IMG/VR virus record: IMGVR_UViG_3300031853_000001
Location: 64,001-128,000 of that record
Reading direction: 5' to 3' (one strand)
Length of the DNA: 64,000 nucleotides
Origin: a virus
Taxonomy: Duplodnaviria; Caudoviricetes
Numbering within the stretch: the stretch's first letter is position 1; each line of letters starts with the position of its first letter. Of the stretch, positions 40,942 to 63,409 are shown piece by piece. A model generated the notes under the pieces. The model was not told the DNA's origin, ran no database searches, and worked only from the letters and a program-made list of their open reading frames with translations. Position numbers and translations under genes: made by a program.

Positions 40942-41017
40942 GCCGTCATAACTCAATTGGTAGAGTAGCACATTAGTAATGTGCAGGTTTTCAGTTCAAG
41001 TCTGAATGGCGGCTCCA
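40942..41017 (+). tRNA. tRNA-Thr(AGT)
   Basis: full cloverleaf, gcaca-ttagtaa-tgtgc, CCA. Confidence 0.9.
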
Positions 41018-41020
41018 TAT

Positions 41021-41098
41021 CGAGCAGTAGCACAGTTGGTCTAGTGCAGGGTGCTGATAACGCCAAGATCGAAAGTTCAAATCTTTCCTGCTCGACCA
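41021..41098 (+). tRNA. tRNA-Ile(GAT)
   Basis: cgagcag/ctgctcg, loop ctgataa, CCA. Confidence 0.9.
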
Positions 41099-41342
41099 GA
41101 AGCCGCGAGGATGACTGGGAGACGGCATTAAGAGGAGTCATGACCTCATCTCTTTCCCGAGTGTATAACTAGCCTTCAGCTCGATAAATATTGGTGGCTA
41201 GTCGCGACGGGTAGCGTAACAGACGTGAGCATTCGGACATACGCTCGGAAACCACATTCAAGAGATGCAGCATTATTGAGTGAAGGTCTGAAAACGGGGA
41301 AGATTGATATTGGTGCAATCCCTTTCTATCCGACAAATATAA

Positions 41343-41416
41343 TGGGGACTAACCTAATGGTAGGGTATTCGGCTCTGACCCGAAGTGTGATAGTTCAATT
41401 CTATCGTCCCCAGCCA
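41343..41416 (+). tRNA. tRNA-Gln(CTG)
   Basis: tggggac/gtcccca, ttcgg-ctctgac-ccgaa, CCA. Confidence 0.9.
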
Positions 41417-41419
41417 TAT

Positions 41420-41497
41420 GGCTTGGTAACTTATGCGGTCTGTAGTGCTGGTCTGAAAAACCAGAGGGTGATAGTTCGACTCTATCCCAAGCCACCA
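41420..41497 (+). tRNA. tRNA-Phe(GAA)
   Basis: ggcttgg/ccaagcc, ctggt-ctgaaaa-accag, CCA. Confidence 0.9.
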
Positions 41498-41579
41498 ATA
41501 CGCATAGTCGCACTATGCAAGGCTACAGTTCCTAACCTTGGCTTCTAAAACCTGCGAGGATAGCGGCCGAAAGAACTGA

Positions 41580-41682
41580 TAGGCACAAACAGCAATTTTC
41601 TTTATTTAAGTATTGAGAAATTGTAGTATGTTGAACGGTCAAATATTAGAAACCATAGCTATTAAGCAAAACGAGTGCCTAG
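41580..41682 (+). ncRNA. ACAGCAA-scaffold RNA #1
   Basis: taggcac-aaACAGCAA...gtgccta-g; cargo AU-rich hairpins. Confidence 0.7.
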
Positions 41683-41729
41683 AAATAAAGTTGATACTTA
41701 ATCGGTTTCTTTTATTTGACTAATGTTAT

Positions 41730-41805
41730 GCCGGTATAGCGCAGAGTATAGAGCATCAAACTTCTAATTTGAGGGTCGAAGGTTAGAATCCTTCTACCGG
41801 CGCCA
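41730..41805 (+). tRNA. tRNA-Arg(TCT)
   Basis: gccggta/taccggc, tcaaa-cttctaa-tttga, CCA. Confidence 0.9.
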
Positions 41806-41806
41806 C

Positions 41807-41897
41807 GCGGGTTTACTCAAGTCTGGGTTAAGAGGTCTGATTCGAAATCAGATAGGATGTAAAAGTCGCAAGGGTTCAAATCCCTTAGCCCGCGCCA
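41807..41897 (+). tRNA. tRNA-Ser(CGA)
   Basis: tctga-ttcgaaa-tcaga, long variable arm, G73, CCA. Confidence 0.9.
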
Positions 41898-41903
41898 TTT
41901 ATA

Positions 41904-42031
41904 TAGTCGCTCACAGCAATCGTTCTTTATAGAACATATGGGTTCGAATCCCATACCACGCACCAAATCGCGTAGTTAGCCAAATGGTTTAGGCAGATGT
42001 CTAACAAACATCCTTCTATTAAAGCGACTAG
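41904..42031 (+). ncRNA. ACAGCAA-scaffold RNA #2 with circularly permuted tRNA (anticodon AAC, Val)
   Basis: tagtcgct-cACAGCAA...agcgacta-g enclosing T arm, 3' acceptor, ACCA, linker, 5' acceptor, D arm, anticodon arm. Confidence 0.85.
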
Positions 42032-42036
42032 TATTT

Positions 42037-42111
42037 GCCCCGTTAGCTTAACGGATAGAGCATACGGCTACGGCCCGTGAGATGTGGGTCCAATTCCTAC
42101 ACGGGGTGCCA
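42037..42111 (+). tRNA. tRNA-Arg(ACG)
   Basis: gccccgt/acggggt, loop ctacggc, CCA. Confidence 0.9.
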
Positions 42112-42294
42112 CCACTAACAATTTTGGTCTTGTAAAGATAGGGCTATGGCTTTGTTTTAGTTAATTGTTAGTTAAGAAAGACTAAAACAAGACATAATAA
42201 CTAGAATAGTTATAAAAATGTCGCGCCTTACTCAGGAAAAAGAGTCGCCCGCCGCAGGGGTGTCCTAGGTGAAATAAAATACTGCGGACTTTAT

Positions 42295-42381
42295 GGGTGA
42301 GTATGCCTAGTGGCGAGGGCATCTGGCTGTAGACCAGACACGTTAGAAACACCGTGGGTTCAACTCCTACCTCACCCACCA
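42295..42381 (+). tRNA. tRNA-Tyr(GTA)
   Basis: tctgg-ctgtaga-ccaga, long variable arm, CCA. Confidence 0.9.
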
Positions 42382-42385
42382 ATAT

Positions 42386-42464
42386 GGACCGATAGCAGAA
42401 TTGGCATATGCACTGGTTTAAGGTACCAGGTTAAGTGTGGGTTCAAATCCCACTCGGTCTACCA
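42386..42464 (+). tRNA. tRNA-Leu(AAG), short variable region
   Basis: ctggt-ttaaggt-accag, CCA. Confidence 0.85.
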
Positions 42465-42468
42465 AATT

Positions 42469-42540
42469 GCCGTATTAGTTCAACGGTAGAATAATAGATT
42501 CGTAATCTAGATGCTTGTTCAAATCAAGTATGCGGCTCCA
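42469..42540 (+). tRNA. tRNA-Thr(CGT)
   Basis: gccgtat/atgcggc, loop ttcgtaa, very short variable loop, CCA. Confidence 0.8.
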
Positions 42541-42575: not shown

Positions 42576-45512
42576 ATGAAAAACAAAATATTTGCATTAC
42601 TTATGATACTAATAATCTTTATTTCTTCGGTAAGTTTCGCGGAAACTCAATTAGAAAGCTATACAAATATTTCTCCTGAAGATGATGAAAACCATTTAGT
42701 ATATACCGAAGTGTGGGAATATTATGTTCAACCAGACGGAACTTTAAGCTCCGGCAAACCAAGAGAGGATTTATCGACTTCAGAACTTGAACCACATAAT
42801 TTCAATGATGAGGGCATTTGTATAGATTGCAATTATGAAAAGGATGTTGTATTTGAAGCAGAAGTAGAAATGTCAAAAACTTTAGGTATTGTTGATATTT
42901 CTCAAACTGTTTCTGTTTATAATTATTTTTATGATAGAGCTACTAAAAAATATAGCGTTCCAATGCAAACTGAAGTCACCCAAAATGGTATAGATTCTTG
43001 GGTACGAGTTAAATTAGATGCCTATAGAACCGTGCGTTCAACAGGTGAGCGCGCGGAAATTAGTTGGGATTTAGCAGATGTTGGTATTTTAGATAGTGAA
43101 GGTAATTTAGTTGCTGAAGGTATTTCTGATTATGTAATTATAGGTGATTACTTATATTATACTAAAATACTTCCAAAAGACTATACTCTTTACATAAGTT
43201 ACTATGGTCGTTTTGCTAATTATCAAGAATTATATAGTAGTTCTTATGTAGGAACTACTCCTAGTTCTGATGCTGTCCAAGGTGAAAACTTTTATCCTGA
43301 TTTTTCTACTGATGACCCTTGGAACAATATAGATATTGAAGCCCGTGAAAAAGACCAAGTTGAGAACAAAAGTAGTTTTGATTTAAAAGTTTTACAAGGT
43401 GAAGGTTTCGCAGATATTTCAGCCGCGGTTACTAACGAAAATGATGAAGAGAATACTAATAGATATATTCTTCCTGGAGATGAATTGAATTTATCTACTG
43501 AATTGAAGATAAATGGGGAAGAAGGGTATGTGTATGATATAATTCAAAAAATTAATTTCGGTATTGAAATGACGCAACTTTTTAATTCTATTGTAGAAAA
43601 CTTTCAAGTTTTCTTGTCTGTAGATAATCAAGATTACACAGATGTAACATCTAGTGAAATGATTGAAGGAAAAGTTTCTTTAGGTAATTATATTAAAGAC
43701 CAGGTGTTAAATTTAATTTATAAAATAAAATTATCTACTTCACTTAATAATATATTTGAAAGTGAGCCTTTTAGTGTTTTAGTAAATTATAAAGCGAAAA
43801 TCGTGGCCACACCTACCCCAAGTCCTAGTCCAACTCCATCGCCAACACCAACTCCATCACCAACTCCATCACCATCACCAACTCCATCACCAACTTTATC
43901 ACCAACTCCATCGTTATCGCCAACGCCATTCATATCACCAACTCCATCATCAACGCCAACTCTATCGCCATCACCAACGCCAACATCAACTCCAATGCCA
44001 ACATCAACTCCAACATCAACTCCAATGTTAACGCCAACCTCAACTCCTACAATTAAACCTACTGAAACGCCAACACCTACACCTACTCCAACTATAACAC
44101 CTACTCTTACGCCGACAGTCACACCTACAATTACTCCTACTGTGACGCCTACTGTTACTGTTACTCCAACAGTTACTGTTACTCCAATAATTATTGTTAC
44201 TCCAACAGTTACACCAAGTTCAACCCCAGTTATAGTTCCTACAGTTACTCCAACAGCTACTCCTACCCCAACAATAATTGTAACCTCTACGCCAACTATA
44301 ACTCCTACGCCAACAGTAACTATTAAACCTACAATTACTCCAAATGTAACTATAACCCCCACCGTAATAATTACAGAGAAACCTACTGATAAGCCAACAG
44401 TAGAACCAACTCCTACTTTGACTGTTACGCCAACTAAAACTCCCACTCCTATTCCAACTTTAATACCTACTAAAACTCCTGTTCCAACAGAAGAACCTAC
44501 TGCAACACCTATACCAACACCTACTTCAACAAGTATACCTACTGCTACTCCTACTGTTGTAATTACTCCAAGTCCAACGCCAATAATTACTCCTACTCCA
44601 ATAATAACAGCAAGTCCTACGCTAACACCAACTATAAAACCTACTCTTACTCCAAGCCCTATACCAATTATAACACCTACACCTACTCTAACAATTTCTC
44701 CAACATCAACGCCTACTTTAACTCCAATTCCAACAGAAAAACCAACGGAGGAACCTACGCGTGAACCAACAGAAAAGCCTACAGCAACATCAACACCCAC
44801 TCCAGTTCCAGCAAACCCAACTCCAACAACAGAACCCAGTTCCACGCCAACTATTACCATCACTCCAACAGTTGAGCCCACCACAGTTCCTACCATACAA
44901 CCAACTGATACACCAGTTGTCACAGTTACCCCTGAAAAACCTAGTAAGTCTCCAAGACCTACTCCCGCACCTACCGAAACAATAAAACCTACTTCAACTC
45001 CACAAATTACTAATATACCTACATTGGAACCTAAATCTACGGAGAAACAGACAAATGAACCTACAATTATACCCATATCAACAGTTAAGCCTACAACAAC
45101 TCCAAGTATCACACTAACTATTGACTCTACAAGAACTCCTATGCCAACGGAAATACTTCCCGCTGACACACCTGTCTCTATTACTCCAAGACCAACACGA
45201 ATCCCACAATCAACAGAAAATTTAATACCTACTCCAAGTCCTACTCCATTAATTACTTATTCACCAGAATATATAGAAGAAATTATAAAAAATATAACTC
45301 CTACGACTCCACAATCTTCATTTTATCAAAAAGTTAGTCAAATGACAGAAACGGAATTAGAAGATTTAATTGAGTTGTTTGATTATAATACGCCTTTATA
45401 TGGAGATTTATTACAGACAGGAGACGATATTCCTCTATATATTCCAATTTCAATTTTAATAGGACTAATGTGTATAGTTGTTTATATAATTTCAAAGAAA
45501 CGTAATCCTTGA
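42576..45512 (+). CDS. secreted Pro/Thr-rich (mucin-like) surface protein with sortase-type anchor
   Basis: signal peptide, acidic N-terminal domain, about 480 aa of TP/SP repeats, C-terminal LQTGD + TM + KKR. Confidence 0.85.
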   Translation: MKNKIFALLMILIIFISSVSFAETQLESYTNISPEDDENHLVYTEVWEYYVQPDGTLSSGKPREDLSTSELEPHNFNDEGICIDCNYEKDVVFEAEVEMSKTLGIVDISQTVSVYNYFYDRATKKYSVPMQTEVTQNGIDSWVRVKLDAYRTVRSTGERAEISWDLADVGILDSEGNLVAEGISDYVIIGDYLYYTKILPKDYTLYISYYGRFANYQELYSSSYVGTTPSSDAVQGENFYPDFSTDDPWNNIDIEAREKDQVENKSSFDLKVLQGEGFADISAAVTNENDEENTNRYILPGDELNLSTELKINGEEGYVYDIIQKINFGIEMTQLFNSIVENFQVFLSVDNQDYTDVTSSEMIEGKVSLGNYIKDQVLNLIYKIKLSTSLNNIFESEPFSVLVNYKAKIVATPTPSPSPTPSPTPTPSPTPSPSPTPSPTLSPTPSLSPTPFISPTPSSTPTLSPSPTPTSTPMPTSTPTSTPMLTPTSTPTIKPTETPTPTPTPTITPTLTPTVTPTITPTVTPTVTVTPTVTVTPIIIVTPTVTPSSTPVIVPTVTPTATPTPTIIVTSTPTITPTPTVTIKPTITPNVTITPTVIITEKPTDKPTVEPTPTLTVTPTKTPTPIPTLIPTKTPVPTEEPTATPIPTPTSTSIPTATPTVVITPSPTPIITPTPIITASPTLTPTIKPTLTPSPIPIITPTPTLTISPTSTPTLTPIPTEKPTEEPTREPTEKPTATSTPTPVPANPTPTTEPSSTPTITITPTVEPTTVPTIQPTDTPVVTVTPEKPSKSPRPTPAPTETIKPTSTPQITNIPTLEPKSTEKQTNEPTIIPISTVKPTTTPSITLTIDSTRTPMPTEILPADTPVSITPRPTRIPQSTENLIPTPSPTPLITYSPEYIEEIIKNITPTTPQSSFYQKVSQMTETELEDLIELFDYNTPLYGDLLQTGDDIPLYIPISILIGLMCIVVYIISKKRNP

Positions 45513-47586: not shown

Positions 47587-48048
47587 ATGACACTTGATGA
47601 ATGTAAGTTAAAAACTATTGAACATATTAATCGTGTTCAATTCTATTTACGTTTTTTTATAGATAGATTAACTGATAAAGGAACTCATCATGATGAAAGT
47701 AAATTAGGTGATATTGAAGCACCTATTTTTGCAAAACATACTGAAAATTTAAGTAATATAAAATTTGGCTCTTCTGAATATAATGAAGAACTAAAACAAT
47801 TAAAAGTAGCTTTAGAACATCATTATAAATATAATCGCCATCATCCAGAATATTTTGGTGAAAACGGAATTAATGGAATGGATTTGACAGATATTCTTGA
47901 AATGCTCGCTGATTGGATGGCAAGTACAGAAAGAACTCAAAATGGAGACATTTTTGAATCTATTGAAATTAATGCTAAACGCTTTAATATAGATAATCAA
48001 TTAAAGCAGATATTAATAAATACTGCTAAACTACTAATTAATAAATAA
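47587..48048 (+). CDS. HD-like protein (DUF5662-like)
   Basis: HDESK, HHY..NRHHPE, M.L.D.LEM.ADW. Confidence 0.7.
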   Translation: MTLDECKLKTIEHINRVQFYLRFFIDRLTDKGTHHDESKLGDIEAPIFAKHTENLSNIKFGSSEYNEELKQLKVALEHHYKYNRHHPEYFGENGINGMDLTDILEMLADWMASTERTQNGDIFESIEINAKRFNIDNQLKQILINTAKLLINK

Positions 48049-48145
48049 AATAAGAGGGAGCAATAAATTGGCCATTTATTGAGATAACGATGCCTTAATC
48101 ATTGAGCTCTTATTCATATAAATATCATTATTAAGGAGTGATAAC
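48049..48145 (+). promoter_or_regulatory. HEG-leader pseudoknot motif, copy B
   Basis: aataagag-GGAGC-hairpin-GAGATAAC-GATG ccttaat CATT-gag-ctcttatt; loop pairs attaagg (SD). Confidence 0.7.
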
Positions 48146-49105
48146 ATGTCAAAATTTATTGATTTAACTGGACAGCAATTTGGAAGATGGTTAGTAAAAG
48201 AGAAATCTAGTAAAAAAACTTCTTATGGACAATATTGGATATGTGAATGCCAATGTGAAAAAAGAACTATCAAGGAAATTTGTGGGCGGTCTTTAAAACA
48301 GGGAGAATCTACAAATTGCGGTTGTTTAAAATATAAACATAAAATAGATTTAACGGGTAAAAAATTTGATTATTTATTATGCTTAAAACCTGGAGAAAGT
48401 ATTAAAAGAAATGATGGACGCTCTAAATCAACTTGGATTTGCAAATGTGATTGTGGTAAGATAATAACAATTCAAACAGAAAGCTTACGAAGTGGTCGAG
48501 CTCATAGTTGTGGTTGTAAAAATGCCGATCTTAGACGAGAAGATTTAACTGGCCAACGTTTTGGTAAACTAATAGCCATTAAGCCCGATTCTTCTCATTA
48601 TACATCTGGTGGGAATGCTTTATCTCGATGGGTTTGTCAATGTGACTGTGGTAATACTATTAGTGTAATAACGCAAGCTTTAAAAAGCGGAAATACTCAA
48701 TCTTGTGGTTGTTTAAATTCTAAAGGTGAAAGCCGTATTAAACAATGGTTATTAAAAAATAATATTATTTTTAAAGCTCAATATATTAATAAAGAAATGA
48801 AATATAATAATGGTAGTTATCCACGTTTTGATTTTGCTATTTTTAATGAGAAAAATAAATTACAATTTTTAATTGAGTATCAAGGCGATATTCATTATAT
48901 CTCTCATAAAAGTGGCTGGAATACTCCAGAAGCTCTGGAAAAAAGACAAAAATATGACGAAGAAAAACGTAATTTATGCAAAACTTTTCATATAAATTTA
49001 ATTGAAATTCCTTATTGGGAATTTGATAATATAGAAAACATTTTAAATCAACTGGTAAAACAGTATAAAATTAATACAGCAAAAATTATGGAAGAGCATG
49101 AGTAA
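48146..49105 (+). CDS. homing-endonuclease-like protein (3x Cys repeats + Vsr/DUF559-like)
   Basis: DLTG..FG, CxCxCG, SKGE, RFDFAI..LIEYQGDIH. Confidence 0.8.
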   Translation: MSKFIDLTGQQFGRWLVKEKSSKKTSYGQYWICECQCEKRTIKEICGRSLKQGESTNCGCLKYKHKIDLTGKKFDYLLCLKPGESIKRNDGRSKSTWICKCDCGKIITIQTESLRSGRAHSCGCKNADLRREDLTGQRFGKLIAIKPDSSHYTSGGNALSRWVCQCDCGNTISVITQALKSGNTQSCGCLNSKGESRIKQWLLKNNIIFKAQYINKEMKYNNGSYPRFDFAIFNEKNKLQFLIEYQGDIHYISHKSGWNTPEALEKRQKYDEEKRNLCKTFHINLIEIPYWEFDNIENILNQLVKQYKINTAKIMEEHE

Positions 49106-49114
49106 GGAGAAAAT

Positions 49115-50060
49115 ATGATTACGAATAACGGGGAAATTATTGAAGTAATTCCAGATTTAGAAACCCCAGAAGAAATTGCTAGAAGTTTTTTTCTTGACAG
49201 AGATATTAAACTTGTAGAAAATAAGATTGAAGATTTGAAGCAAGTTCTACTTTCTTTAACTCACAATAATGATAGATTACAGCGTCAATTTAATGAACTA
49301 TATGAAGAAAAATGGGCCGATACTACACTTCAAAATATGAAGAAAGAGTTAGAACAAGTAAAGCAAAATATGTATCGTGGTTTTCCTATTACTGAAGCGG
49401 AAGAAAAGAAAATTAATAATTGGATTTTAAAGCACGATGAAGAAATTCATAATAATCCTAATCATTATCATGGTGTTTCTGGTGGAGGTTATGAATACTC
49501 TTTTCACCCTACTGGTTTAGGCACGATTGGTTATTGTATCTGTGGTATTTGTAAAAGTAAAGCCATCCGTGAAGCTGGTGAAAAATGGTGGGAACATTTA
49601 AAAAATAATAACGGATATATTGAATTTGGAGATTTTGGATAATGAATATTTTTAAAAAAAGAAACGCACAAAACTACCTTCTCCCACCAGAAAAAGAGGA
49701 AAAAATAAAAAATTTACTAGATTCAGCACCTAGATTGCTTTGGCCGCACCCAAATGATGACGTAGAATTTATAATCCCTTTATTTAATGCAGAAAAGCAT
49801 TACAAACATTTAAAAAAGATTATATGGAAAAATAGTAGGAGGTAATTATGGGGGATGAATATAAATATACCTATAAAGAACAAGCCGAACATTTTAAAAA
49901 ATTAGTTCATCAATTAGAAAAAGAAATTAAAGAATTAAATAAAGAAAATGATGAATTACATATAATTATTAATGATTTAAAAGATAAAATTACATATCAT
50001 TGTAATCCTGAAGATACTTATAGAGAAGATTTTACTTTTAATCATTTGACTTTTAATTAA
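49115..50060 (+). other. three hypothetical CDSs (49115-49642, 49642-49845, 49848-50060)
   Basis: coupled ORFs; first has GGGY.YSF.PTGLG. Confidence 0.55.
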
Positions 50061-50136
50061 AATTCTGCTATAATAATATTGTAAAAAAGAAAAGCCCTAG
50101 TCCAGGGCTGACCAAATGAAAAGGAGATTTAAAATT

Positions 50137-51756
50137 ATGACTAATTTCAATCAGGTAGTTTCTAATTTTGTTGCTTCTCAGAATTCTTACCCTGTTCGTA
50201 AGAATATTAGCAAGGCTCACGCTTCTTCCTTTATCAATGCGATGAAGCAAGAGGATAACTTCAAGTATACCGAAAATGGTGCGGTAGCCAAGAAGTCTAC
50301 TATGTCCAAGCTATACGACCTATTTGCACTTGGCGGCTCCTATCGTTCTCGCACCGAGAGCGATTGTATCGTTCTTTTTAAGAACGCATATCAGGAGAAC
50401 CCTGCCTATGCTCTAAAGTGCCTATGGTATCTTCGTGATATTCTTGAGGGTCAGGGTGAGCGTCGTTTCTTCCGTGTTTGCTTAAAGTGGCTTGCTACCT
50501 ACGACAAGCAGGCTGTACTACGCAACCTTGATACCATTGCCCGTGATGGTTTCGGCCGCTGGGATGATCTGTTTGTCCTATTTGACACTCCTTGCGAGGA
50601 TGCTGTTATGAAGCTGATTGAAAATCAGCTAGTTAGCGACCTAAAGGCGTATCAGGCCGGTGCCGCAGTATCTCTACTTGGCAAGTGGATTCCTTCCGAG
50701 AACTCCTCTTCTGCCAAGACTAAGCATAATGCTCGTCGCATTATTGCTGCTCTTCACGTATCTCCTCGTGAGTATCGTAAGACTCTATCTGCTCTGCGTG
50801 AGCGTATCCACGTTGTAGAGCGTCTTATGTCCCAGAACCGTTGGGACGAGATTGATTTCTCTCATCTACCTTCTCGTGCTGGCCTGATCTATCGCAAGGC
50901 TTTCGAGCGTCGCGATATGATTCAGCAGAAGTATCGTGAGTTCGCGAAGGATACTTCTACCAAGGTAAATGCTGGTAAGCTATATCCTTACGACGTTGTG
51001 CGTGAGGCACAGAAGGTTATGCACTGTGATTCCTACTGGAATTATGGTTCTCGCGAACCTCGCCTAGACGACACCCAGCGTCTAATGGTTAATAAGTATT
51101 GGGATAACCTACGTAATGTTTTCCCTGCGGGTGAAAACTTTAACGCTATGGTTGTTTGCGATACTTCTAGCTCTATGCTAAATGGAGCAAGCAATACTGC
51201 TTCTCCTATGCAGGTTGCGGTATCTCTGGCAATGTATGCCGCAGAGCGTGCCAACGGTCCTTTCAAGAACCATTATATCAGTTTCAGCCGTCAGGCTCGT
51301 CTGGTAGAGGTTTTTGGTGCGGACTTCTGCGACAAGGTATCTCGTATCATCCGCTCCAATGTGTGCGAGAATACCAATCTTGAAAGTGTTTTCGACCTAG
51401 TGCTAAATACTGCTATGCAGTATCGCCTACCTCGTAACGCTATGCCTAAGACTCTTGTAGTCGTGTCCGATATGGAAGTAGATCGTTCTGCGGGTATTTC
51501 CAGTCATAAGGAAACCTTTATGGAGTCTATGCGTCGTAAGTGGGCTCAGAAGTGCGGCAACCGCTATGAGTTCCCTGACGTAGTGTTCTGGAATGTGTCT
51601 GCTCGCAACGATACTTTCCTAGACGATCCTAAGAGTGGCATTACTTACGTGTCTGGCTGCAGTCCTGTACTGTTTGAGCAGATTCTGTCTGGTAAGACGT
51701 CTATTGACCTTATGCTAGACAAGCTTAACGCTCCTCGCTACAAAGACATCTACTAA
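50137..51756 (+). CDS. DUF2828-family protein (TROVE/Ro60-like helical domain + vWA)
   Basis: TENGA...ST...DLF, LRD...GQGER, GRWDDL, SL..KW.P, MIDAS-like DTSSSM, TNL..VF, SDME, FWNV, VSG.SP; own promoter (50046) and terminator. Confidence 0.85.
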   Translation: MTNFNQVVSNFVASQNSYPVRKNISKAHASSFINAMKQEDNFKYTENGAVAKKSTMSKLYDLFALGGSYRSRTESDCIVLFKNAYQENPAYALKCLWYLRDILEGQGERRFFRVCLKWLATYDKQAVLRNLDTIARDGFGRWDDLFVLFDTPCEDAVMKLIENQLVSDLKAYQAGAAVSLLGKWIPSENSSSAKTKHNARRIIAALHVSPREYRKTLSALRERIHVVERLMSQNRWDEIDFSHLPSRAGLIYRKAFERRDMIQQKYREFAKDTSTKVNAGKLYPYDVVREAQKVMHCDSYWNYGSREPRLDDTQRLMVNKYWDNLRNVFPAGENFNAMVVCDTSSSMLNGASNTASPMQVAVSLAMYAAERANGPFKNHYISFSRQARLVEVFGADFCDKVSRIIRSNVCENTNLESVFDLVLNTAMQYRLPRNAMPKTLVVVSDMEVDRSAGISSHKETFMESMRRKWAQKCGNRYEFPDVVFWNVSARNDTFLDDPKSGITYVSGCSPVLFEQILSGKTSIDLMLDKLNAPRYKDIY

Positions 51757-51772
51757 GGTTAAGTATAAATTT

Positions 51773-51798
51773 GAGATGGAGAAATCCATCTCTTTTTT
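51773..51798 (+). terminator. intrinsic terminator
   Basis: gagatgga-gaaa-tccatctc-tttttt. Confidence 0.85.
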
Positions 51799-51851
51799 AT
51801 TTGACTTATTATAAAAATTTTGATATAATATTTATAGAAAGGATGAGGAAA

Positions 51852-52208
51852 ATGAACTATTACATTTATTTGGATGATGTGCGCGAAGATGATACTTGGT
51901 TTCGACAGCATTTGAATACCGAGCATTGGATTCCTTGTGTTGTTCGTTCTTATGAGGAAGTAATTCATATTCTTGACCATATGCAAGATTATATGGACAA
52001 GGATGAAGTGCTTATTCTCGACCTTGATCACGACCTTGGCGAAACTGAAGATGGTTACAATGAACTCGCGCACACAGGATATGATGTTTGTAAGTGGATG
52101 ATAGAAAATCATTTCCCTGCCTGCTATTTTCACATTCATAGCATGAACGCTAGTGGTTCTGCGAATATGCGACAACTTCTTACTCACTATGGCTATAAGG
52201 AGATTTAA
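51852..52208 (+). CDS. cyclic-phosphate-processing receiver-domain protein
   Basis: YLDDVR, LDLDHDLG, TGYDV.KW, IHSMN..G..NM. Confidence 0.8.
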   Translation: MNYYIYLDDVREDDTWFRQHLNTEHWIPCVVRSYEEVIHILDHMQDYMDKDEVLILDLDHDLGETEDGYNELAHTGYDVCKWMIENHFPACYFHIHSMNASGSANMRQLLTHYGYKEI

Positions 52209-52667
52209 TATGCTTTTAGATGAAAATAATGATAAAGAAAAGCTTTATAAAATTATTGATTTTCTAATAGAACAAATTAAAAATCTGCAAAGAACTAATT
52301 CTGAAATAAATGAACTTTTGAAAGAATCAATTTTTAGAAAATAATTTCTTGACTTTCTCCAAAAATTCTGATATAATTATTATAGTAAAAGGAAAGGAGA
52401 ATAACATAGTGGAAAAGTACAGACCTATTTATAGAGATATTCACGATTGGGCAATTTTGGACGAACGAACTATTCATGATTTTTCTGAAAACGAAACTCC
52501 TATTCACGTGGTAGAAGTTCTTATTGGAACTCTTCATTATGAGCATATAGATTTTAATCAGCATTATACTGAACATCGCACTCCTATTATTCGTTGGCTA
52601 ACTCGTAATGAATATGATTATCTTTGCGCGAATGAAGGCACCGTAATTTGGTAAGAAAGGATTAAAT

Positions 52668-53318
52668 ATGCGTAAGTACGAAAAAATTGAAACTCTATTT
52701 GCCCGCGATATGGAAGGCACTAAAAAGCTAATGCCGGGTATTTTTCGTGACCCGACTATTGAGTTTCTTCAGTATTGTGATTGGGTATGGACTGAGAAGA
52801 TAGACGGCACTAATATCCGCGTGTATTGGGATGGCCATAAGGTTACTTTTAGTGGCCGTACCGATAACGCAGTTATTCCCGCAGAACTTATCACTCGTCT
52901 AAATGAACTTTTTAGCGGTGAGACTAATGCTCAAATTTTTGAGCAGGCTTTTGGCGATAAGGAAGTTATTCTATTCGGTGAGGGCTATGGTCGTAAAATT
53001 CAGAAGGGCGGTGGCAAGTATATTGCCGATGGCGTTGATTTTATTCTATTTGACGTTCTAATTGGTGAGAATTATCAAGAACGTGAATGGGTTGAAAGCA
53101 CCGCCAAGATGTTTGGTATTAAGGTCGTCCCAATTGTGGGTGGCGGTTCGCTTGAAGACGCTGTAAATTATGTTAAGAAGCACCCTAATTCGATAATTGC
53201 GGAAGATGTACGAGAAATGGAAGGTATTGTATGTAGACCCGCTGTTGAGCTACGTGACCGTCGTGGTAATCGTATTATTGTAAAAATTAAGTGGGAAGAT
53301 ATAAAGGAGCTTATTTAA
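52668..53318 (+). CDS. Rnl2-like RNA ligase
   Basis: motif I EKIDGTN, LFGEGYG, FDV, EGIV, KIK. Confidence 0.85.
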   Translation: MRKYEKIETLFARDMEGTKKLMPGIFRDPTIEFLQYCDWVWTEKIDGTNIRVYWDGHKVTFSGRTDNAVIPAELITRLNELFSGETNAQIFEQAFGDKEVILFGEGYGRKIQKGGGKYIADGVDFILFDVLIGENYQEREWVESTAKMFGIKVVPIVGGGSLEDAVNYVKKHPNSIIAEDVREMEGIVCRPAVELRDRRGNRIIVKIKWEDIKELI

Positions 53319-53663: not shown

Positions 53664-54640
53664 CTCAGCGCAAAAGGAGAGCAAGCTGTTACTCCGAGTG
53701 AACTTATCGGCGCTATATAAATAGGAAAAACCAATTAAATACAGTATTTTAAATGAAGTAATAACTGCCATAGAAGTCATGACCTATGATAGAAGACACT
53801 TCATTTAAAGCAACCGGTTGATTTGCGCAATTAAGTCGTTAGAAGCGACTAGAGGGAGAGACCCTGACTAATAAGCAAGTCCATTCTATGAAATGGTAAT
53901 GTCGAAAACCAATTAGTGTAAAGTAGCATACCTTACCAATAATAAGGAGAATCAGCGTAGCGAACTGAATTGGCGTACTGGAATTTGTTGTCCAGAGTAG
54001 GCATAAATCGAGCAGCAATGCGGTAATACCCGTGCACAGGTAGCTAAATTACCCTGGCTCACCAATTATTTTAGAAGATAAGACTTGAGCTTATCTCTGG
54101 CTATGAAGCGAGTGCCGTGCCGCAGATGCGGTGCTTAGTGGAGCCTATGTGGGTTTAGCGTGTCAACCACAATGCGGATAGGTATTAACCGAAAGAAAAC
54201 ACGCTTTAATGGCGCTTTATCCCAAGCCTTTTCGCGGCGGCGCTATAAGTACCAAAAGGTATTATTTAATACTGAGCGTGAAACTAAGAGGGAACTGAAG
54301 GCTGTGCCAAGGTGAAAGGCTAACAGTCCGAGTGATGACCGTTGAAGCCATTCGGTGCATAGTGGTGCCGTTAAAGCGATGGATGCATACATCGTCCACT
54401 TCATTTAATGACTTGATGCTTATCAAGCTAGAACTATCGAGGACGTGTGCGGTGGGAATGTTTGAGATTAGATGTAGATAGTTTAAGTATAGACTTGCGG
54501 TGCAAGCCTAATCAACTGGCGTTCCGCGGCCAGAATACTTTGCGGGCTTTATTGATTCGGGAGGAAGTGTCCGTAGATGAACTTCTCGGAGTAATCGCCA
54601 TAATCGAATCAGCCGTGCGGCTGGCATAATGCCGCAATAT
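53664..54640 (+). ncRNA. about 1-kb structured non-coding region with embedded tRNA-like domains
   Basis: no credible ORF; many hairpins; cloverleaf-like 53907-53975 (loop ccaataa) and ACCA-ending unit 54010-54064. Confidence 0.55.
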
Positions 54641-54760
54641 GGCACCGTAGTGCAAAGGTAAGCACGCCGGCCTTTGTGAGATAGGGTAAAGTGCAGTTCA
54701 ACTCTGCCGTCTCGCACCACAAGCCGGTGATGCTGGGTTCAAGTCCCGCCGGTGCTTCCA
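54641..54760 (+). tRNA. tRNA-Glu(TTC) interrupted by 44-nt mini-tRNA insert (54676-54719)
   Basis: removing the insert gives ccggc-cttt|caa-gccgg; CCA. Confidence 0.85.
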
Positions 54761-54763
54761 AGC

Positions 54764-54856
54764 AAAGAAAAGAGAAGCATAAATCTGATCAATTTATGAG
54801 ATAATGATGCCCTAACATCAAGTCTTTTCTTTAATAAATATTATTAGGGTGATATT
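54764..54856 (+). promoter_or_regulatory. HEG-leader pseudoknot motif, copy C
   Basis: aaagaaaaga-GAAGC-hairpin-GAGATAAT-GATG ccctaa CATC-aag-tcttttcttt; loop pairs ttaggg. Confidence 0.7.
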
Positions 54857-55498
54857 ATGAGTAGAAAATTAAGCCAACAACAATTTGAAGAAAGAGTATA
54901 TAAGACATTTGGAGATAAATATTCTGTAGTAAGTGAATATTTAGGTCAAAGAAAACCTATAACTTTACATTGTAATATACACAATATTGATTTTACAGCT
55001 ACTGCTGAATGTTTCATGAGACAAGCTAATGACACTCGCTCAAGTTGTCCAGAATGTACTGCAGAAAAACGAAGACAAGAAAATAATTCTGTAAAATGTG
55101 AATGTGCTTATTGTCATAAAATTTTTTATTTGTCTCAATCTAAAGCTAATAATTCTAAAAGTGGATTACATTTTTGTTGTAGAGAACATAAAGATTTAGC
55201 TCAAAGAATAGATAGCGGTGAACAATTCGATATAATGCGCCCGCCTCATTATAATGCAATAAAAAATGATACAGGAACAATTGGGACATATCGTATTTTA
55301 GCTTTTAGAAATTATCCCCATAAGTGCGCTGTTTGTAATTGGGACGAAGATGAAGATATATTACAAGTTCATCATATAGATGAAAATAGACAAAATAATT
55401 CTTTAACCAATTTAATTATTTTATGTCCTAATTGTCACGCAAAAATAACTTATGGGAAATATAAATTAATTGATCGAAAACAAATTATATTAAAATAA
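54857..55498 (+). CDS. HNH endonuclease
   Basis: CAVC...LQVHHIDENRQNN...NL..LCPNCH. Confidence 0.9.
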   Translation: MSRKLSQQQFEERVYKTFGDKYSVVSEYLGQRKPITLHCNIHNIDFTATAECFMRQANDTRSSCPECTAEKRRQENNSVKCECAYCHKIFYLSQSKANNSKSGLHFCCREHKDLAQRIDSGEQFDIMRPPHYNAIKNDTGTIGTYRILAFRNYPHKCAVCNWDEDEDILQVHHIDENRQNNSLTNLIILCPNCHAKITYGKYKLIDRKQIILK

Positions 55499-55511
55499 AA
55501 TTAAATAGGAG

Positions 55512-55995
55512 TTGTTGTATATGGCAATCCACGATAGAGCTTATACTCGTACAAAAAGTTGGACTAAGGCACTTCGTAAATACCACATTGATAGAGATAT
55601 TTCCGCAGGTAAATGGTGGCCTATGTACAATAATCTCCATCAATATGCTGATAATAAAATTCATTGTTCCTGTCCAATGTGTAGTGCTAAAACCAACAAC
55701 AAAAAGCGCAATGGGCCTCGTGGATGGGAACCTTCAAAAAATTGGTCTATTTCAGATCAAAAGAAAATTAATAGTATGGAAAGTCAAGTTGAGGAATTAA
55801 ATGATAACTTGGAATAATTTTAAATGTGATTTTCCGTATCATCGTATAGATAATTTTGGCGATTATAGTGAAATGTGGTGCGGACGATTAGAAAAATATA
55901 TTTCTAATTGTAATGATTGCCCATTTAACCAAAAAGAAAAAGAGATGCGTGAAGACCCCAATAATTATCAAAAATGGCTAAAATTACATAATTGA
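55512..55995 (+). other. two small Cys-containing hypothetical CDSs (55512-55817, 55801-55995)
   Basis: coupled ORFs; HCSCPMC motif. Confidence 0.55.
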
Positions 55996-56325
55996 CTTTT
56001 TCTAAAAATTATAGTATAATATATATAGTTAAGGGAAAGGAGATAAATTATTTATGAATTATCTGGATGATTTTCTTGTTGGCCCGCAGAGCGATGAATA
56101 TGATTGGTATTATGAAAATGAAATTCCTGATCCAGAATGGGACAGGAGATGTCGAGGATTGGATAAACTAATACTTGACAAGTAATAAAAATTATGTTAT
56201 AATATTTATAGAAACAAGGAAAGGATGATAATTGTGCGCTTTACGACTCGCAAGTCTCGTACTGTGTTTTCTTCTTCTTGGAGTCGCCGCAAGCAGGCAG
56301 AGATGCTTGATGAGTGGCAGATTTA

Positions 56326-56870
56326 AACGCCAGATTAGTTCAGCAAATTGCGGCCAATATTAATGGCGTTACCGCATTCCTTACTTATAGTTTGGAAGTA
56401 CAAAGGTTTTGAGTAATTGAACCGGTTAAATCAATGCTTGGCGCCGGGTCCACCCTACTGGGCTCGTAAACAAATCGCGGCCAATGGTGAGAAGCGCCAC
56501 CGCTATAAAGGAATGCCCCACGACGGGTTTCGTAAGTTATGTTGAAAGATATATACTAGCTTGGAATAAGCACACGCAAGAGTTGCTATAATGCGCAACA
56601 GAAAAATCCTTTATAATAGGTTAACCTACGGTCGGATGGGAGACGATAAACCCCTTTCAAGCAGTCTCTTTGGCGGTTGGACTTAAAATAAACCACCTAG
56701 GTCAGCAGGACTGATAACTATATATTATAGAAGCAATCTCTTTTATAATATATAGAAAACGCAGCCATAATCCTGTCGTTGCGGCGAACAACGATAAAAA
56801 TCGCTAGTAGCCCAGATACTTACTTAAAGGGTTTTCGCCGCGTTAATCTTGGTATCGGATTGCGGTTGTA
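56326..56870 (+). ncRNA. unassigned structured non-coding region
   Basis: long-range closing stems such as gcattcctt/aaggaatgc and gggttt/aaaccc; no ORF. Confidence 0.45.
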
Positions 56871-56871
56871 T

Positions 56872-57006
56872 CCACGCGTGGTGCAAATGGCGAGACACAG
56901 CGGACTTACGTAGGCCCAGTGGCTTGTTGGAGAGCAACACTCCTTCCTACGACCAAAATCCGCGACGCAAGATACATTGCTGGTTCAAATCCAGTCGCGT
57001 GGACCA
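56872..57006 (+). tRNA. tRNA-Leu(TAA) interrupted by 47-nt mini-tRNA insert (56909-56955)
   Basis: removing the insert gives gcgga-ctta|aaa-tccgc; long variable region, CCA. Confidence 0.87.
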
Positions 57007-57009
57007 TAT

Positions 57010-57086
57010 GAGTTTGTAACCGAATTGGCATAGGTACTTGGCTCAAACCCAAGGTTTTGTGGGTTCGACTCCCACCAAACTCACCA
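57010..57086 (+). tRNA. tRNA-Leu(CAA), short variable region
   Basis: cttgg-ctcaaac-ccaag, CCA. Confidence 0.88.
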
Positions 57087-57154
57087 AAATTTATATTTCG
57101 AGTGCGAATTATAATAATTTGAATTCGATGTTATTACTTATCTAATGTAAGGAG

Positions 57155-57925
57155 GTGGTTAATATGCCACTAAAATATAAATTAGAAGAAGTATTAACAG
57201 AAAATTCTCCTGTTACTAGAAAAGTTTTAAAAGATTATTTAGCAAAATATAATGTTTTAGAATATAAATGTGCAATATGCGATAACAGAGGAGAATGGAA
57301 TGGAGTTTCTTTAACATTACAAATAGACCATATTAATGGTATAAGAGATGATAATAGAAAAGAAAATCTTCGTTGGCTATGCCCGAATTGTCATTCTCAA
57401 ACTGATACTTTTACTGGGAAAAATAAAACTAAAAAAGAAGTTGTTAATTTTACAGTAGAAGAAGCTATTAAAGCATTACAACAAACTGAAAATGTAAATC
57501 AAGCAACCAAATTAATCGGCTGTGCGCAAGGTGGAGCAAATTGGATTAGAGTAAATGATATTAAAAAAAAGTATGGAATTATTCAATCTGGGGATTTAAA
57601 GAAAGAAGAAAAACAAAAGTTTAAAGAAAATCATATTAATGCGAAACCAATTAACTCTATTAAATTATGTAAAAAATGCGGCCGTCCGTTATCGACAAAA
57701 GATGCTGAATACTGTCAAACTTGTATACACGAATTTCAACGAAAATGTGAATGGCCTTCTCGCGAAGAACTTAAAAAATTAATTCGCTCTACACCTTTTT
57801 TACAAATAGGTAAAAAATATAATGTAAGCGATAATGCTGTAAGAAAATGGTGCTTAAATTATGGTTTGCCATCTAAAAAGATGGAAATAAAAGCAATTTC
57901 AGATGAAGATTGGAATAATATTTGA
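57155..57925 (+). CDS. HNH endonuclease with C-terminal HTH
   Basis: CAIC...LQIDHING...DNRKENLRWLCPNCHSQT; VSDNAVRKW. Confidence 0.9.
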   Translation: MVNMPLKYKLEEVLTENSPVTRKVLKDYLAKYNVLEYKCAICDNRGEWNGVSLTLQIDHINGIRDDNRKENLRWLCPNCHSQTDTFTGKNKTKKEVVNFTVEEAIKALQQTENVNQATKLIGCAQGGANWIRVNDIKKKYGIIQSGDLKKEEKQKFKENHINAKPINSIKLCKKCGRPLSTKDAEYCQTCIHEFQRKCEWPSREELKKLIRSTPFLQIGKKYNVSDNAVRKWCLNYGLPSKKMEIKAISDEDWNNI

Positions 57926-59117: not shown

Positions 59118-59693
59118 ATACTCCATTTAATAAAATGGTTGAACCAAGTGAAGAAGAGTTAACCACTCTGCTTGGGCTATCTAAATAACAGCCATACGAT
59201 TTAGCGGGATACTACTAAATCGCGGCCACGAAATCAGTAATGATTAGTGATAAGGAGAAACTCTTAATGTTAAGGATAGGCGCTTGGTTATTCGCTAACA
59301 AAAACTTGGCTCCTTGCGGCGTCGTAATAGAAAGCAGATTGAGCAGATTTGCCGAACCCAGAAAAGACTTTAAGGTGGCAGTTAAAGGGACTCTGGGAAA
59401 GCCATAAGACGTTTGGTGTCGTTGAAACCTAGAAATAGGATATAAGCAAGGTTCACAGATAAAGTAGCCTAAAACGACAATGATTCTAATAAGTAATTTA
59501 ATTAGAATAATGTGCTGAATGGTTTAGGTGAAATTTGGGAGTAATCAGTCTCCCCGTTGCTAGCCAAAAGGCAGGATGAAGAAGTTAAAGGGTCGCTACC
59601 TTTGGCTCAGCCTTCATCTTCAACGTGGTTGAATATGTTAGAAGGATAATACAAGTACGGCGAAGGTCGCAACGGTTTTATTAAATGGGGTAT
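59118..59693 (+). ncRNA. 576-nt large structured RNA, ROOL-like
   Basis: 23-bp terminal stem atactccatttaataaaatggtt/aacggttttattaaatggggtat; size and tRNA-cluster context fit ROOL; family not verified. Confidence 0.6.
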
Positions 59694-61464: not shown

Positions 61465-61538
61465 AGTCCGTTAGTTTAACAGTAAAATATAACCCTGTCA
61501 CGGTTAAGTTACGAGGGCAGCACTCGTACGGACTGCCA
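61465..61538 (+). tRNA. tRNA-Asp(GTC)
   Basis: taacc-ctgtcac-ggtta, G73, CCA; atypical T loop ggcagca. Confidence 0.85.
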
Positions 61539-61662: not shown

Positions 61663-62215
61663 CGGGTTGTAGCGCAGTTTGGTAGCGCGCCTCGCTTGGG
61701 AAAAGCGATTTGTGCTTAATTATTATGTTAGACATTACTCAACAAAAAGGAACGATTACAGAATTACGATGTATTTTAGATTTAACTAATTTGGGAATAC
61801 GATGTTTAGTTCCTGTAGATGAAAGTTCTAAATATGATGTAGTAGCAGATTTAAATGGTACTTTTATTAGAATTCAATGTAAAACAGCTTGTTGGGCTAA
61901 AGATACCGTTCAAGAAAAAGTAGCCTTTGAAATAGATACTTGTCGAAGTACAACAAATACTAAAACTACTACTCATTATAAGTATTCTGCTAATGAAATT
62001 GATTATTTTTATACATGGTTTGAAGGACAAGGTTACTTAGTCTCCATTAAAGAAGCAAAAGGTTTAACTTTTAGATGGCGATATGAATATCCTTCTACCA
62101 ATCAAAAACAAGGTATTCATATCGCAGAATTATATAAGACTGAGGAGGTTTTAAAAGCACTCTAAAATTTTCCTGGACGAGGAGGCCGCAGGTTCAAATC
62201 CTGCCTGCCCGACCA
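61663..62215 (+). tRNA. tRNA-Pro(TGG) split by an ORF-bearing insert (about 61699-62174)
   Basis: 5' half cgggttg..cctcg-cttg; 3' half gga-cgagg..ctgcccg-ACCA; rejoined loop cttggga. Confidence 0.88.
61725..62165 (+). CDS. PD-(D/E)XK endonuclease inside the tRNA-Pro insert (I-Ssp6803I-like family)
   Basis: KGTITE, P....YDVV.D..G.FIRIQCKT, Y...EIDYF. Confidence 0.85.
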   Translation: MLDITQQKGTITELRCILDLTNLGIRCLVPVDESSKYDVVADLNGTFIRIQCKTACWAKDTVQEKVAFEIDTCRSTTNTKTTTHYKYSANEIDYFYTWFEGQGYLVSIKEAKGLTFRWRYEYPSTNQKQGIHIAELYKTEEVLKAL

Positions 62216-63289: not shown

Positions 63290-63409
63290 TATGCGGTCAC
63301 AGCAATTTTAGATTTAATCTAAGTGTCATCGGTTCGATTCCGATTATTCCAGCCATTTAATTTGGAGTGTAGCTCAATTGGTAGAGCATTAGAATTATAA
63401 ACCGCATAG
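63290..63409 (+). ncRNA. ACAGCAA-scaffold RNA #8 with circularly permuted tRNA (Lys/Asn-like)
   Basis: tatgcggt-cACAGCAA...accgcata-g enclosing tctaa, T arm, tattcca-GCCA, linker, tggagtg, D arm, ttaga. Confidence 0.85.

Follow-up and report, generated by a model that had tools for sequence, protein, structure and literature searches.

The tRNA genes of Lak megaphages contain 'enigmatic introns' that are identical across cohorts and present or absent between genomes, one of which is itself a tRNA (Devoto et al. 2019, Nat Microbiol, PMC6784885). Those given in Table S6 of that work are 79–114 nt long, with a 5' hairpin and a tRNA-like module ending in ..CA (PMC6784885). A 2026 survey reported tRNA introns in 262 jumbo phages and noted that they 'could encode another tRNA' (PMC13037316). 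No other descriptions of such introns were found in the literature searched, and neither of these two papers contains an end rule running from the first stem base to the CCA, an analysis of covariation, or a mechanism. To our knowledge, neither bacteria nor their viruses have yielded a demonstrated case of a short tRNA intron that is spliced by proteins. In the tRNA repair system of phage T4, cleavage by PrrC is followed by the action of Pnk and Rnl1, the ligase closing the nick in the anticodon loop of a tRNA whose two halves are kept in place by the tRNA body. In collaborative homing, as in the psbA gene of cyanophages, an ORF-less intron lies beside a free-standing homing endonuclease gene.

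The locus described here is within a window of 64,000 nucleotides, bases 64001–128000 of a virus record of 180,932 bp and 34.5% GC that is complete according to CheckV. No close relative is present among deposited phage genomes, the only match being the neighbouring Leu(CAA) tRNA, to T5-like phages at about 82% identity. About 25 tRNA genes of the window form an island, which also contains several homing-type endonuclease genes, an RNA-repair-like gene set, and the following RNAs:

54098–54209, drum RNA, within the tRNA island.
59120–59688, ROOL RNA, within the tRNA island.

Spacing between most of the tRNAs is 1–4 nt, and nearly all have an encoded CCA. Two tRNAs with an unusual A34 in the anticodon, Thr(AGU) and Leu(AAG), are found in the region made up of 40942–41017, 42386–42464, and 42469–42540, and a further tRNA of this 40942–42540 set, Thr(CGU)-like by its loop UUCGUAA, is detected by Rfam only. 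A 978-aa ORF without a Pfam match (42576–45512) covers an extreme GC skew (−0.62 at 44001–45000).

The sole Glu and the sole Leu(UAA) tRNA genes of the genome are both split. Codon usage in the phage is led by GAA, at 59 per 1000, and TTA accounts for 52% of Leu codons. The insert in the Leu gene is a tRNA-shaped intervening sequence, conserved and probably mobile, in a tRNA-Leu(UAA) gene that has been maintained. The limits of the two exons are based on ARAGORN with introns and on alignment to uninterrupted orthologues, and the gene is laid out as follows:

56872–56908, + strand, exon 1 of tRNA-Leu(UAA): acceptor 5' strand CCACGCG, D arm with G18-G19, anticodon stem GCGGA, and loop CUUA.
56909–56955, + strand, 47-nt mini-tRNA insert, supported by the 47-column gap against orthologues, the canonical parse, and covariation in the family.
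56956–57006, + strand, exon 2 of tRNA-Leu(UAA): AAA, UCCGC, long variable arm, T arm GCUGG-UUCAAAU-CCAGU, CGCGUGG, and ACCA.

With introns allowed, ARAGORN finds a single tRNA at exactly 56872–57006 with an intron of 47 nt. The gene is called neither by ARAGORN without introns nor by Rfam, the gathering search included. Twelve related viral loci were fetched using the Rnl2-like ligase as a handle, and across the related loci the tRNAs are in the syntenic order Met, Glu, (Ala), Leu(UAA), Leu(CAA), Leu(UAG), Asn. Uninterrupted syntenic Leu(UAA) genes in L001, L003, L005, and L011 have the loop CTTAAAA and align with a gap of exactly 47 columns. The host gene is therefore Leu(UAA) and the insert is exactly 47 nt. 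Removal of the insert leaves the loop CUUAAAA, the same as in these orthologues, in a cloverleaf with a long variable arm. The register chosen by ARAGORN (33/34, anticodon CAA) was rejected on the basis of the orthologue loop and of the Leu(CAA) gene that is already present 3 nt downstream (57010–57086). Due to the run of A residues there are two registers that give UAA, 34/35 and 35/36, and only with 35/36 does the insert start at its first paired base and end with ACCA. A first-pass annotation of the window had described a 47-nt insert at 56909–56955 with a terminal stem, a T-like hairpin, and ACCA, had stated that its excision gives a perfect Leu(UAA) loop, and had warned that the A run lets the boundary slide; all of these held.

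Variants of the interrupted gene were sought by a gapped pattern search of metagenome contigs. This gave 35 hits, roughly two thirds of which are unrelated sequence, and yielded nine more interrupted Leu(UAA) genes. The exact 22-mer of the insert is found in only 2 viral contigs. Recognisable cloverleaves are formed by the ten interrupted Leu alleles, despite exon identities of 52–62% at the lowest, and no decay was seen. When the L011 allele is compared to the exons in the window, six of the seven acceptor pairs differ, each with a compensating change, which means that the interrupted gene has been kept as a tRNA. If the splicing model presented below is true, gene finders would miss functional phage tRNAs, in this case the readers of the commonest Glu codon and the main Leu codon.

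The same search pattern matched a non-tRNA repeat, CAGCGGACTTA...ACAAACAAGT-AAAATCCGC, in L022, L030, L036, L039, L041, L042, L044, and L052. Several copies of this element are present in contigs with related record names and it appears to be an unrelated repeat family. Leu(UAA) genes in two other metagenomes (L025:1960–2105 and L048:6618–6763, both − strand) have a 52-nt insert at the same loop site. These inserts have two hairpins and no CCA tail, the copies differ by paired changes, and they are of a different kind.

Upstream of tRNA-Leu(UAA) is a block at 55818–56871 that is free of ORFs and strongly structured (z = −3.8 for 56590–56871). An 11-mer within a hairpin loop there, GGACTTAAAAT at 56679–56689, is identical to the sequence predicted for tRNA-Leu(UAA) across its spliced junction and anticodon loop. 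The block was considered as a tRNA remnant and this was rejected, the 11-mer GGACTTAAAAT being all that it has in common with the spliced tRNA. Approximately 56560–56778 is missing from a sister genome (L018).

The insert reads CGUAGG C CCAGUGGCUUGU U GGAG AGCAACA CUCC U U CCUACG ACCA, and has these parts:

56909–56914, + strand, 5' strand of the acceptor-like stem, CGUAGG, paired with 56946–56951 by folding.
56929–56943, + strand, T-arm-like hairpin GGAG-AGCAACA-CUCC, supported by covariation, with an RGCARCA loop as in the Asp-like gene at 61465–61538.
56946–56951, + strand, 3' strand of the acceptor-like stem, CCUACG, supported by folding and covariation.
56952–56955, + strand, tail ACCA (discriminator plus CCA), invariant in 10 of 10 alleles.

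The geometry is that of an acceptor stem of 7 positions, a linker of 12 nt, and a 5/7/5 T arm that abuts the acceptor 3' strand to make a 7+5 stack, followed by ACCA. In this parse six of the seven acceptor pairs and four of the five T-stem pairs are formed. The two mismatches are at the junction, 7:66 (C.U) and 49:65 (U.U), and the T loop AGCAACA is without the canonical U54-U55. Among 2,000,000 47-mers drawn at random from the window, a minimum of 6/7 acceptor pairs with 4/5 T-stem pairs in this geometry occurred in 0.17%, and in 0.004% together with an NCCA end. The Asp(GUC)-like tRNA gene at 61465–61538 (Rfam 45.8 bits, not called by ARAGORN) has the T loop GGCAGCA rather than UUCRANY, and the T-like loops of the inserts (AGCAACA, AGCAGCA, GGCAGCA) are of the same type. 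A search for hairpins with RGCARCA loops gave 6 hits, 2 of them relevant, so that this is not a motif spread across the genome.

The changes in the stems of the ten alleles are all double and compensatory, and none breaks a stem. Pair 4:40 is changed from A-U to G-C in L027, L043, and L049, and pair 22:34 from G-C to A-U in L029 and L035. Other changes in the insert family are in the T-like loop or the linker. Overall, 90% of the paired cells are paired and 5 pairs are changed on both sides, a result matched by 0 of 500 shuffles and by no slid control. RNAfold prefers an inner hairpin (AGUGGCUU/GAGC..CACU); this was rejected, as G22A with C34U in L029 and L035 keeps only GGAG/CUCC. The compensatory changes in both stems show that the minihelix fold of the Leu insert is under selection.

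No Rfam family matches the insert at E values of up to 10 (54500–57100 searched), and the tRNA model RF00005 has no hit on 56909–56955 itself. A group I intron was rejected on this result and on the length of 47 nt, and a ribozyme or other known RNA family was rejected on the absence of an Rfam match. An archaeal-type bulge-helix-bulge was also rejected, the junction being an asymmetric internal loop with 4 nt on the 5' side and 7 nt on the 3' side. The mini-tRNA shape proposed in the first-pass annotation thus held, backed by the compensatory changes in both stems, as did its statement that this is not the classical group I intron.

A selected fold might mean that the pieces are themselves the products, with a free CCA-ended minihelix, tRNA halves, or both acting without ligation as decoys for host anticodon nucleases, CCA-adding enzymes, or synthetases. 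The structural selection on the minihelix and the retention of its CCA are in keeping with this, as are the RNA-repair-like gene set and the many tRNA-like fragments of the phage. However, it leaves unexplained the canonical loop formed on removal of the insert and the full tRNA structure of the exons. In addition, a loose scan for free-standing minihelices elsewhere in the genome gave hits at about the level of shuffled sequence, only real tRNAs and the Glu insert standing out. This explanation is considered very unlikely, and an intervening sequence in a maintained tRNA gene remains the preferred reading.

CCA is encoded by 20 of the 21 tRNA genes in this genome, and a CCA tail alone could possibly be an inherited habit. 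All ten Leu inserts end in ACCA, and five of the host tRNAs (L020, L029, L035, L046, and L050) do not encode a CCA. Because these five still carry ACCA-ended inserts, the tail is likely to be functional within the insert. From sequence alone, plausible roles may be the binding of the RCCA end by RNase P and the fixing of the 3' cut. In many bacterial species, RNase Z cannot act on a precursor whose CCA is encoded. The RNase Z of T. maritima is known to cut immediately past an encoded CCA, as happens at some RNase E sites and in part with other RNase Z enzymes (PMC7479834).

Identity within the insert family is 87–100% (mean 95%), while that of the surrounding exons is 52–99%, with a mean of 69% without the 19 nt forced by the search pattern and 75% with them. 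The unpaired linker of 12 nt has a single change across the family. It is unlikely that a tRNA-sized unit would evolve several times more slowly than its host tRNA, and recent horizontal spread of the Leu insert is therefore the simpler and likely reading, inferred from the sequences. At the DNA level, the insert would be a small, recently spreading element, probably riding on homing endonucleases encoded beside tRNA genes. Two such genes are downstream of the split Glu and Leu tRNAs of the window:

54857–55498, + strand, HNH endonuclease gene (Pfam HNH), 97 nt downstream of the interrupted tRNA-Glu.
57155–57925, + strand, HNH endonuclease gene (Pfam HNH, HNH_3), just 3' of the Leu(UAA)-Leu(CAA) pair, with homologues beside interrupted tRNAs in L008, L011, L035, L038, and L053.

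Genes for HNH, GIY-YIG, or PD-(D/E)XK endonucleases are within approximately 1.1 kb of about 10 of the 19 interrupted tRNAs examined. They are of the HNH type in the window (twice), L008 (twice), L011, L035, L038, and L053, of the GIY-YIG type in L046, and of the PD-(D/E)XK type in L020; none was found near the interrupted tRNAs of L006, L027, L029, L043, L049, and L050. The association is no more than suggestive, such genes being frequent across these islands and there being no background rate. The HNH genes are possible drivers of insert spread, a role that is inferred. Collaborative homing can also be envisaged, in which the insert would destroy the target of the endonuclease in the tRNA gene; both cleavage of the target and immunity are inferred.

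These observations raise the alternative of a selfish insert without splicing, in which an element spread by endonucleases inactivates a dispensable tRNA gene and no working tRNA is made, or, in a variant, protects the DNA of the gene from the endonuclease. In its favour are the conservation of the insert, far above that of the gene around it, and the nearby endonuclease genes. Phage tRNAs are often dispensable. The tRNA-Pro of the same island is also broken by an endonuclease ORF. Against this, the ten diverged host alleles keep intact cloverleaves with compensated stems and no decay, and each of eight independent inserts, once removed, gives a perfect 7-nt loop. There is no reason for a non-functional insert to have compensatory stem changes or an ACCA tail, and the codons read by the split genes are the commonest Glu codon and the main Leu codon. 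The selfish insert is therefore seen as unlikely, and a mobile insert in a tRNA gene that remains functional is preferred to it.

The Leu insert is not the only one of its kind. Within the window the tRNA-Glu gene has its own, and others are present in related loci:

54641–54760, + strand, tRNA-Glu(UUC) with a 44-nt mini-tRNA insert at 54676–54719, supported by Rfam and orthologues.
L011:16184–16233, 50-nt insert at position 34/35 in Asn(GUU), identified by synteny and G73.
L013:5135–5183, 49-nt insert at position 32/33 in another Leu(UAA).
L013:3851–3895, 45-nt insert in Thr(UGU), tail ACUA.
L009, 69-nt insert in Gln and 75-nt insert in Lys, cloverleaf-like, tails GCAA and GCCA.
L008:3401–3476, complete tRNA with anticodon CUA and ACCA, at position 34/35 in an Ile(UAU)-like tRNA, Rfam 47.8 bits over 3401–3473.

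In the Rfam alignment of tRNA-Glu (44.8 bits) a block of 47 nt replaces three loop positions, which is 44 extra nt. Glu(UUC) orthologues have the loop CTTTCAA, and L008 carries the same Glu insert with the tail GCCA. In L053 a sequence-unrelated insert of 47 nt is found at the same Leu site, with perfect 7+5 geometry and ACCA. There are six sequence-unrelated insert families with one geometry, 7 / linker 9–15 / 5-7-5 / 7 / 4-nt tail. In every insert, removal from the first stem base to the fourth base past the stem restores a 7-nt loop, with U kept at position 33 and a purine at 37. Of 8 insert families, 6 have an NCCA tail; in the relatives, two inserts have the tails ACUA and GCAA. Between the anticodon stem of the host and the stem of the insert, the internal loop divides as 1/10, 3/8, or 4/7, so that there is no constant bulge-helix-bulge geometry. 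The inserts form a size series, from the complete nested tRNA(CUA) of L008 through the degenerate cloverleaves of L009 to the minihelices, in which the D and anticodon arms are lost and the acceptor/T-arm part and tail are always retained. It is the acceptor/T-arm part that RNase P and RNase Z recognise, minihelices being substrates.

The first-pass annotation had taken the Glu and Leu inserts to share the anticodon position 35/36 and had argued for a selected structural rule rather than chance or duplication. The Glu counterpart is real, and the selected rule held, given the six unrelated families with one architecture. The common position failed as a rule, since inserts in the relatives are also at 32/33 (L013 Leu) and 34/35 (L011, L008). 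With families at 32/33, 34/35, or 35/36, the excision rule is likely to be set by the ends of the insert itself and not by position 35/36, although this is inferred from sequence alone. The locus and its relatives thus give a simple rule that can be tested, the intron running from the first tRNA-like stem base to a 4-nt tail that is mostly CCA.

The tRNA(CUA) nested in L008:3366–3518 is of the amber suppressor type, and tRNA(CUA) genes are also found in L006, L009, and L010. L013 has few long ORFs under code 11, a hint of TAG recoding in part of the clade. A third split tRNA of the window, tRNA-Pro(UGG) at 61663–62215, has its halves approximately 476 nt apart, and the gap is almost wholly taken up by a PD-(D/E)XK (PF11645) endonuclease ORF (61710–62165). 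This insert has a closing stem, GGAAAA/UUUUCC, without a T arm and without CCA, and its register is ambiguous due to a repeated UGGA. The sequence left over is too short to hold a group I core, so that it may be a dead gene or possibly the sign of a more general protein-based splicing route.

Among the genes of the island is a candidate for the joining of the exons, 3.5 kb upstream of tRNA-Leu(UAA):

52668–53318, + strand, Rnl2-like RNA ligase gene (Pfam RNA_ligase PF09414, E 4e-18).

The product of 216 aa has an Rnl2-type nucleotidyltransferase domain, no C-terminal Rnl2 domain, and no recognisable tRNA-binding domain. The nearest solved structure is T4 Rnl2 (E 4e-7; PDB 1s68 and 2hvq, E about 1e-6 over residues 38–168). 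By domain and similarity it is an Rnl2-type RNA ligase; its activity is inferred, and so is the sealing role for which it is a candidate. T4 Rnl2 seals nicks in duplex RNA, and the repair of loops in T4 is carried out by Rnl1. The same ligase is also present in L001 and L005, in which the fetched regions show no interrupted tRNA. Adjoining it are genes for a protein with a cREC cyclic-phosphate-processing domain and a DUF2828/DUF7788/vWA protein; the RNA-repair-like set as a whole, at 47587–53318, is made up of DUF5662, DUF2828/DUF7788/vWA, the cREC protein, and the ligase. A weak match to YrlA (Y RNA-like) is found at 63320–63393 (30.4 bits, cut-off 69). The complete phage genome encodes no EndA (PF01974), RtcB, CCA-adding enzyme head domain, or Lactamase_B_2 (metallo-beta-lactamase RNase Z), control genomes having returned the expected hits in each of these searches.

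What is shown for this locus is its gene layout, fold, conservation pattern, and gene content. There are no RNA data, and each step at the RNA level in what follows is inferred. The insert would fold as an acceptor/T-arm minihelix with an ACCA tail, the minimal shape for tRNA end-processing enzymes. Cleavage by host RNase P would fall at the insert's first base, so that exon 1 would end in a 3'-OH. An endonuclease would then cut directly past the CCA to give exon 2 a 5'-phosphate; this could be RNase E or an enzyme of the RNase Z/BN type, the phage host and its enzymes not having been identified. The exons would be held together by acceptor, D, and T contacts within the host tRNA, and the nick in the anticodon loop would be sealed by the ATP-dependent Rnl2-like ligase (52668–53318), much as the T4 ligase acts on a nicked tRNA. 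Cleavage by RNase P or RNase Z gives 3'-OH and 5'-P ends. Such ends suit an ATP-dependent ligase without end healing, hence the proposed pathway, every step of which is inferred. The predicted forms are an unspliced RNA of 135 nt and a ligated tRNA-Leu of 88 nt, with a junction of GGACUUA joined to AAAUCCGC.

Excision by tRNA end-processing enzymes followed by sealing with the phage ligase is the most likely of the mechanisms considered, with the evidence for it evenly balanced. The tRNA-Pro insert, having neither T arm nor CCA, shows that this route cannot explain every insert in the genome. Also against it are the ligase being Rnl2-like and not Rnl1-like, the ACUA and GCAA tails, the stem mismatches, and the presence of the ligase in uninterrupted relatives. 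Splicing could instead be by an unknown dedicated nuclease, a different ligase, or both, without RNase P or RNase Z, the activity coming from an uncharacterised phage protein or from a host enzyme able to read the closing helix and short 3' tail. In support, the tRNA-Pro insert and those ending in ACUA or GCAA would need to be removed too, many ORFs of the island have no Pfam match, and the cREC protein is encoded beside the ligase. However, neither the exact tRNA top half with its canonical 7+5 stack and NCCA nor the complete tRNA in the same place is explained in this way, and no EndA or RtcB is encoded. An unknown nuclease is therefore thought unlikely in comparison with the end-processing route.

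A bolder reading of the end-processing route is that it is a third route of tRNA splicing, in bacteria and phages, in which the intron is itself a tRNA or the top half of one. The 5' cut would be made by RNase P, the cut after the CCA by an RNase Z- or RNase E-type enzyme, and the seal by an Rnl2-like ligase, with introns that are mobile via homing endonucleases. The evidence falls a little short of favouring this. It does name concrete enzyme candidates, these being RNase P, a nuclease cutting past the CCA, and the phage ligase at 52668–53318. If true, the enzymes of tRNA processing would double as a splicing machine, with a bearing on ideas of the origin of tRNA from minihelices.

Each of the known systems shares some features with the phage inserts. 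The cyanobacterial and plastid group I intron interrupts the anticodon loop of the same tRNA species, Leu(UAA), yet is hundreds of nt long with a ribozyme core (P3–P9), where the phage insert has 47 nt. The protein-spliced introns of archaea and eukaryotes are likewise short, located in the anticodon loop, and not self-splicing, being removed by an endonuclease (EndA/Sen) and a ligase (RtcB or Trl1). Their position, however, is usually 37/38 and is set by a bulge-helix-bulge, a motif of two 3-nt bulges around a 4-bp helix that is cleaved by EndA and does not fit this locus, whereas the cuts in the phage genes are set by the helix of the insert itself at variable loop positions. Their ends are a cyclic phosphate and a 5'-OH, while 3'-OH and 5'-P ends are expected, by inference, for the phage inserts. 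T4 repair differs in that it deals with damage rather than an insert encoded in the gene, needs end healing, and uses Rnl1, where the ligase here is Rnl2-like. The cyanophage psbA system resembles the phage inserts in having an ORF-less insert near an endonuclease, found in only some relatives and better conserved than the sequence on either side, but that insert is a self-splicing group I intron.

The introns of Lak and other jumbo phages are the closest. The Lak introns differ in their length of 79–114 nt, in an extra 5' hairpin, and in ends of ..CA or ..CTA rather than NCCA, and they are not simply one tRNA-shaped unit. The phages themselves also differ, those of the Lak group being approximately 540 kb, infecting Prevotella, and using code 15, while this phage is 181 kb and has long ORFs under code 11. 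In common are short, non-group-I inserts in the anticodon region that are present or absent among relatives and near-identical across samples. The Thr TGT intron of Lak is a tRNA by Rfam, and the other introns hold an acceptor/T-arm module according to the reading of Table S6 made here. If the end-processing route is true, the introns of the Lak and jumbo phages would be explained by it.
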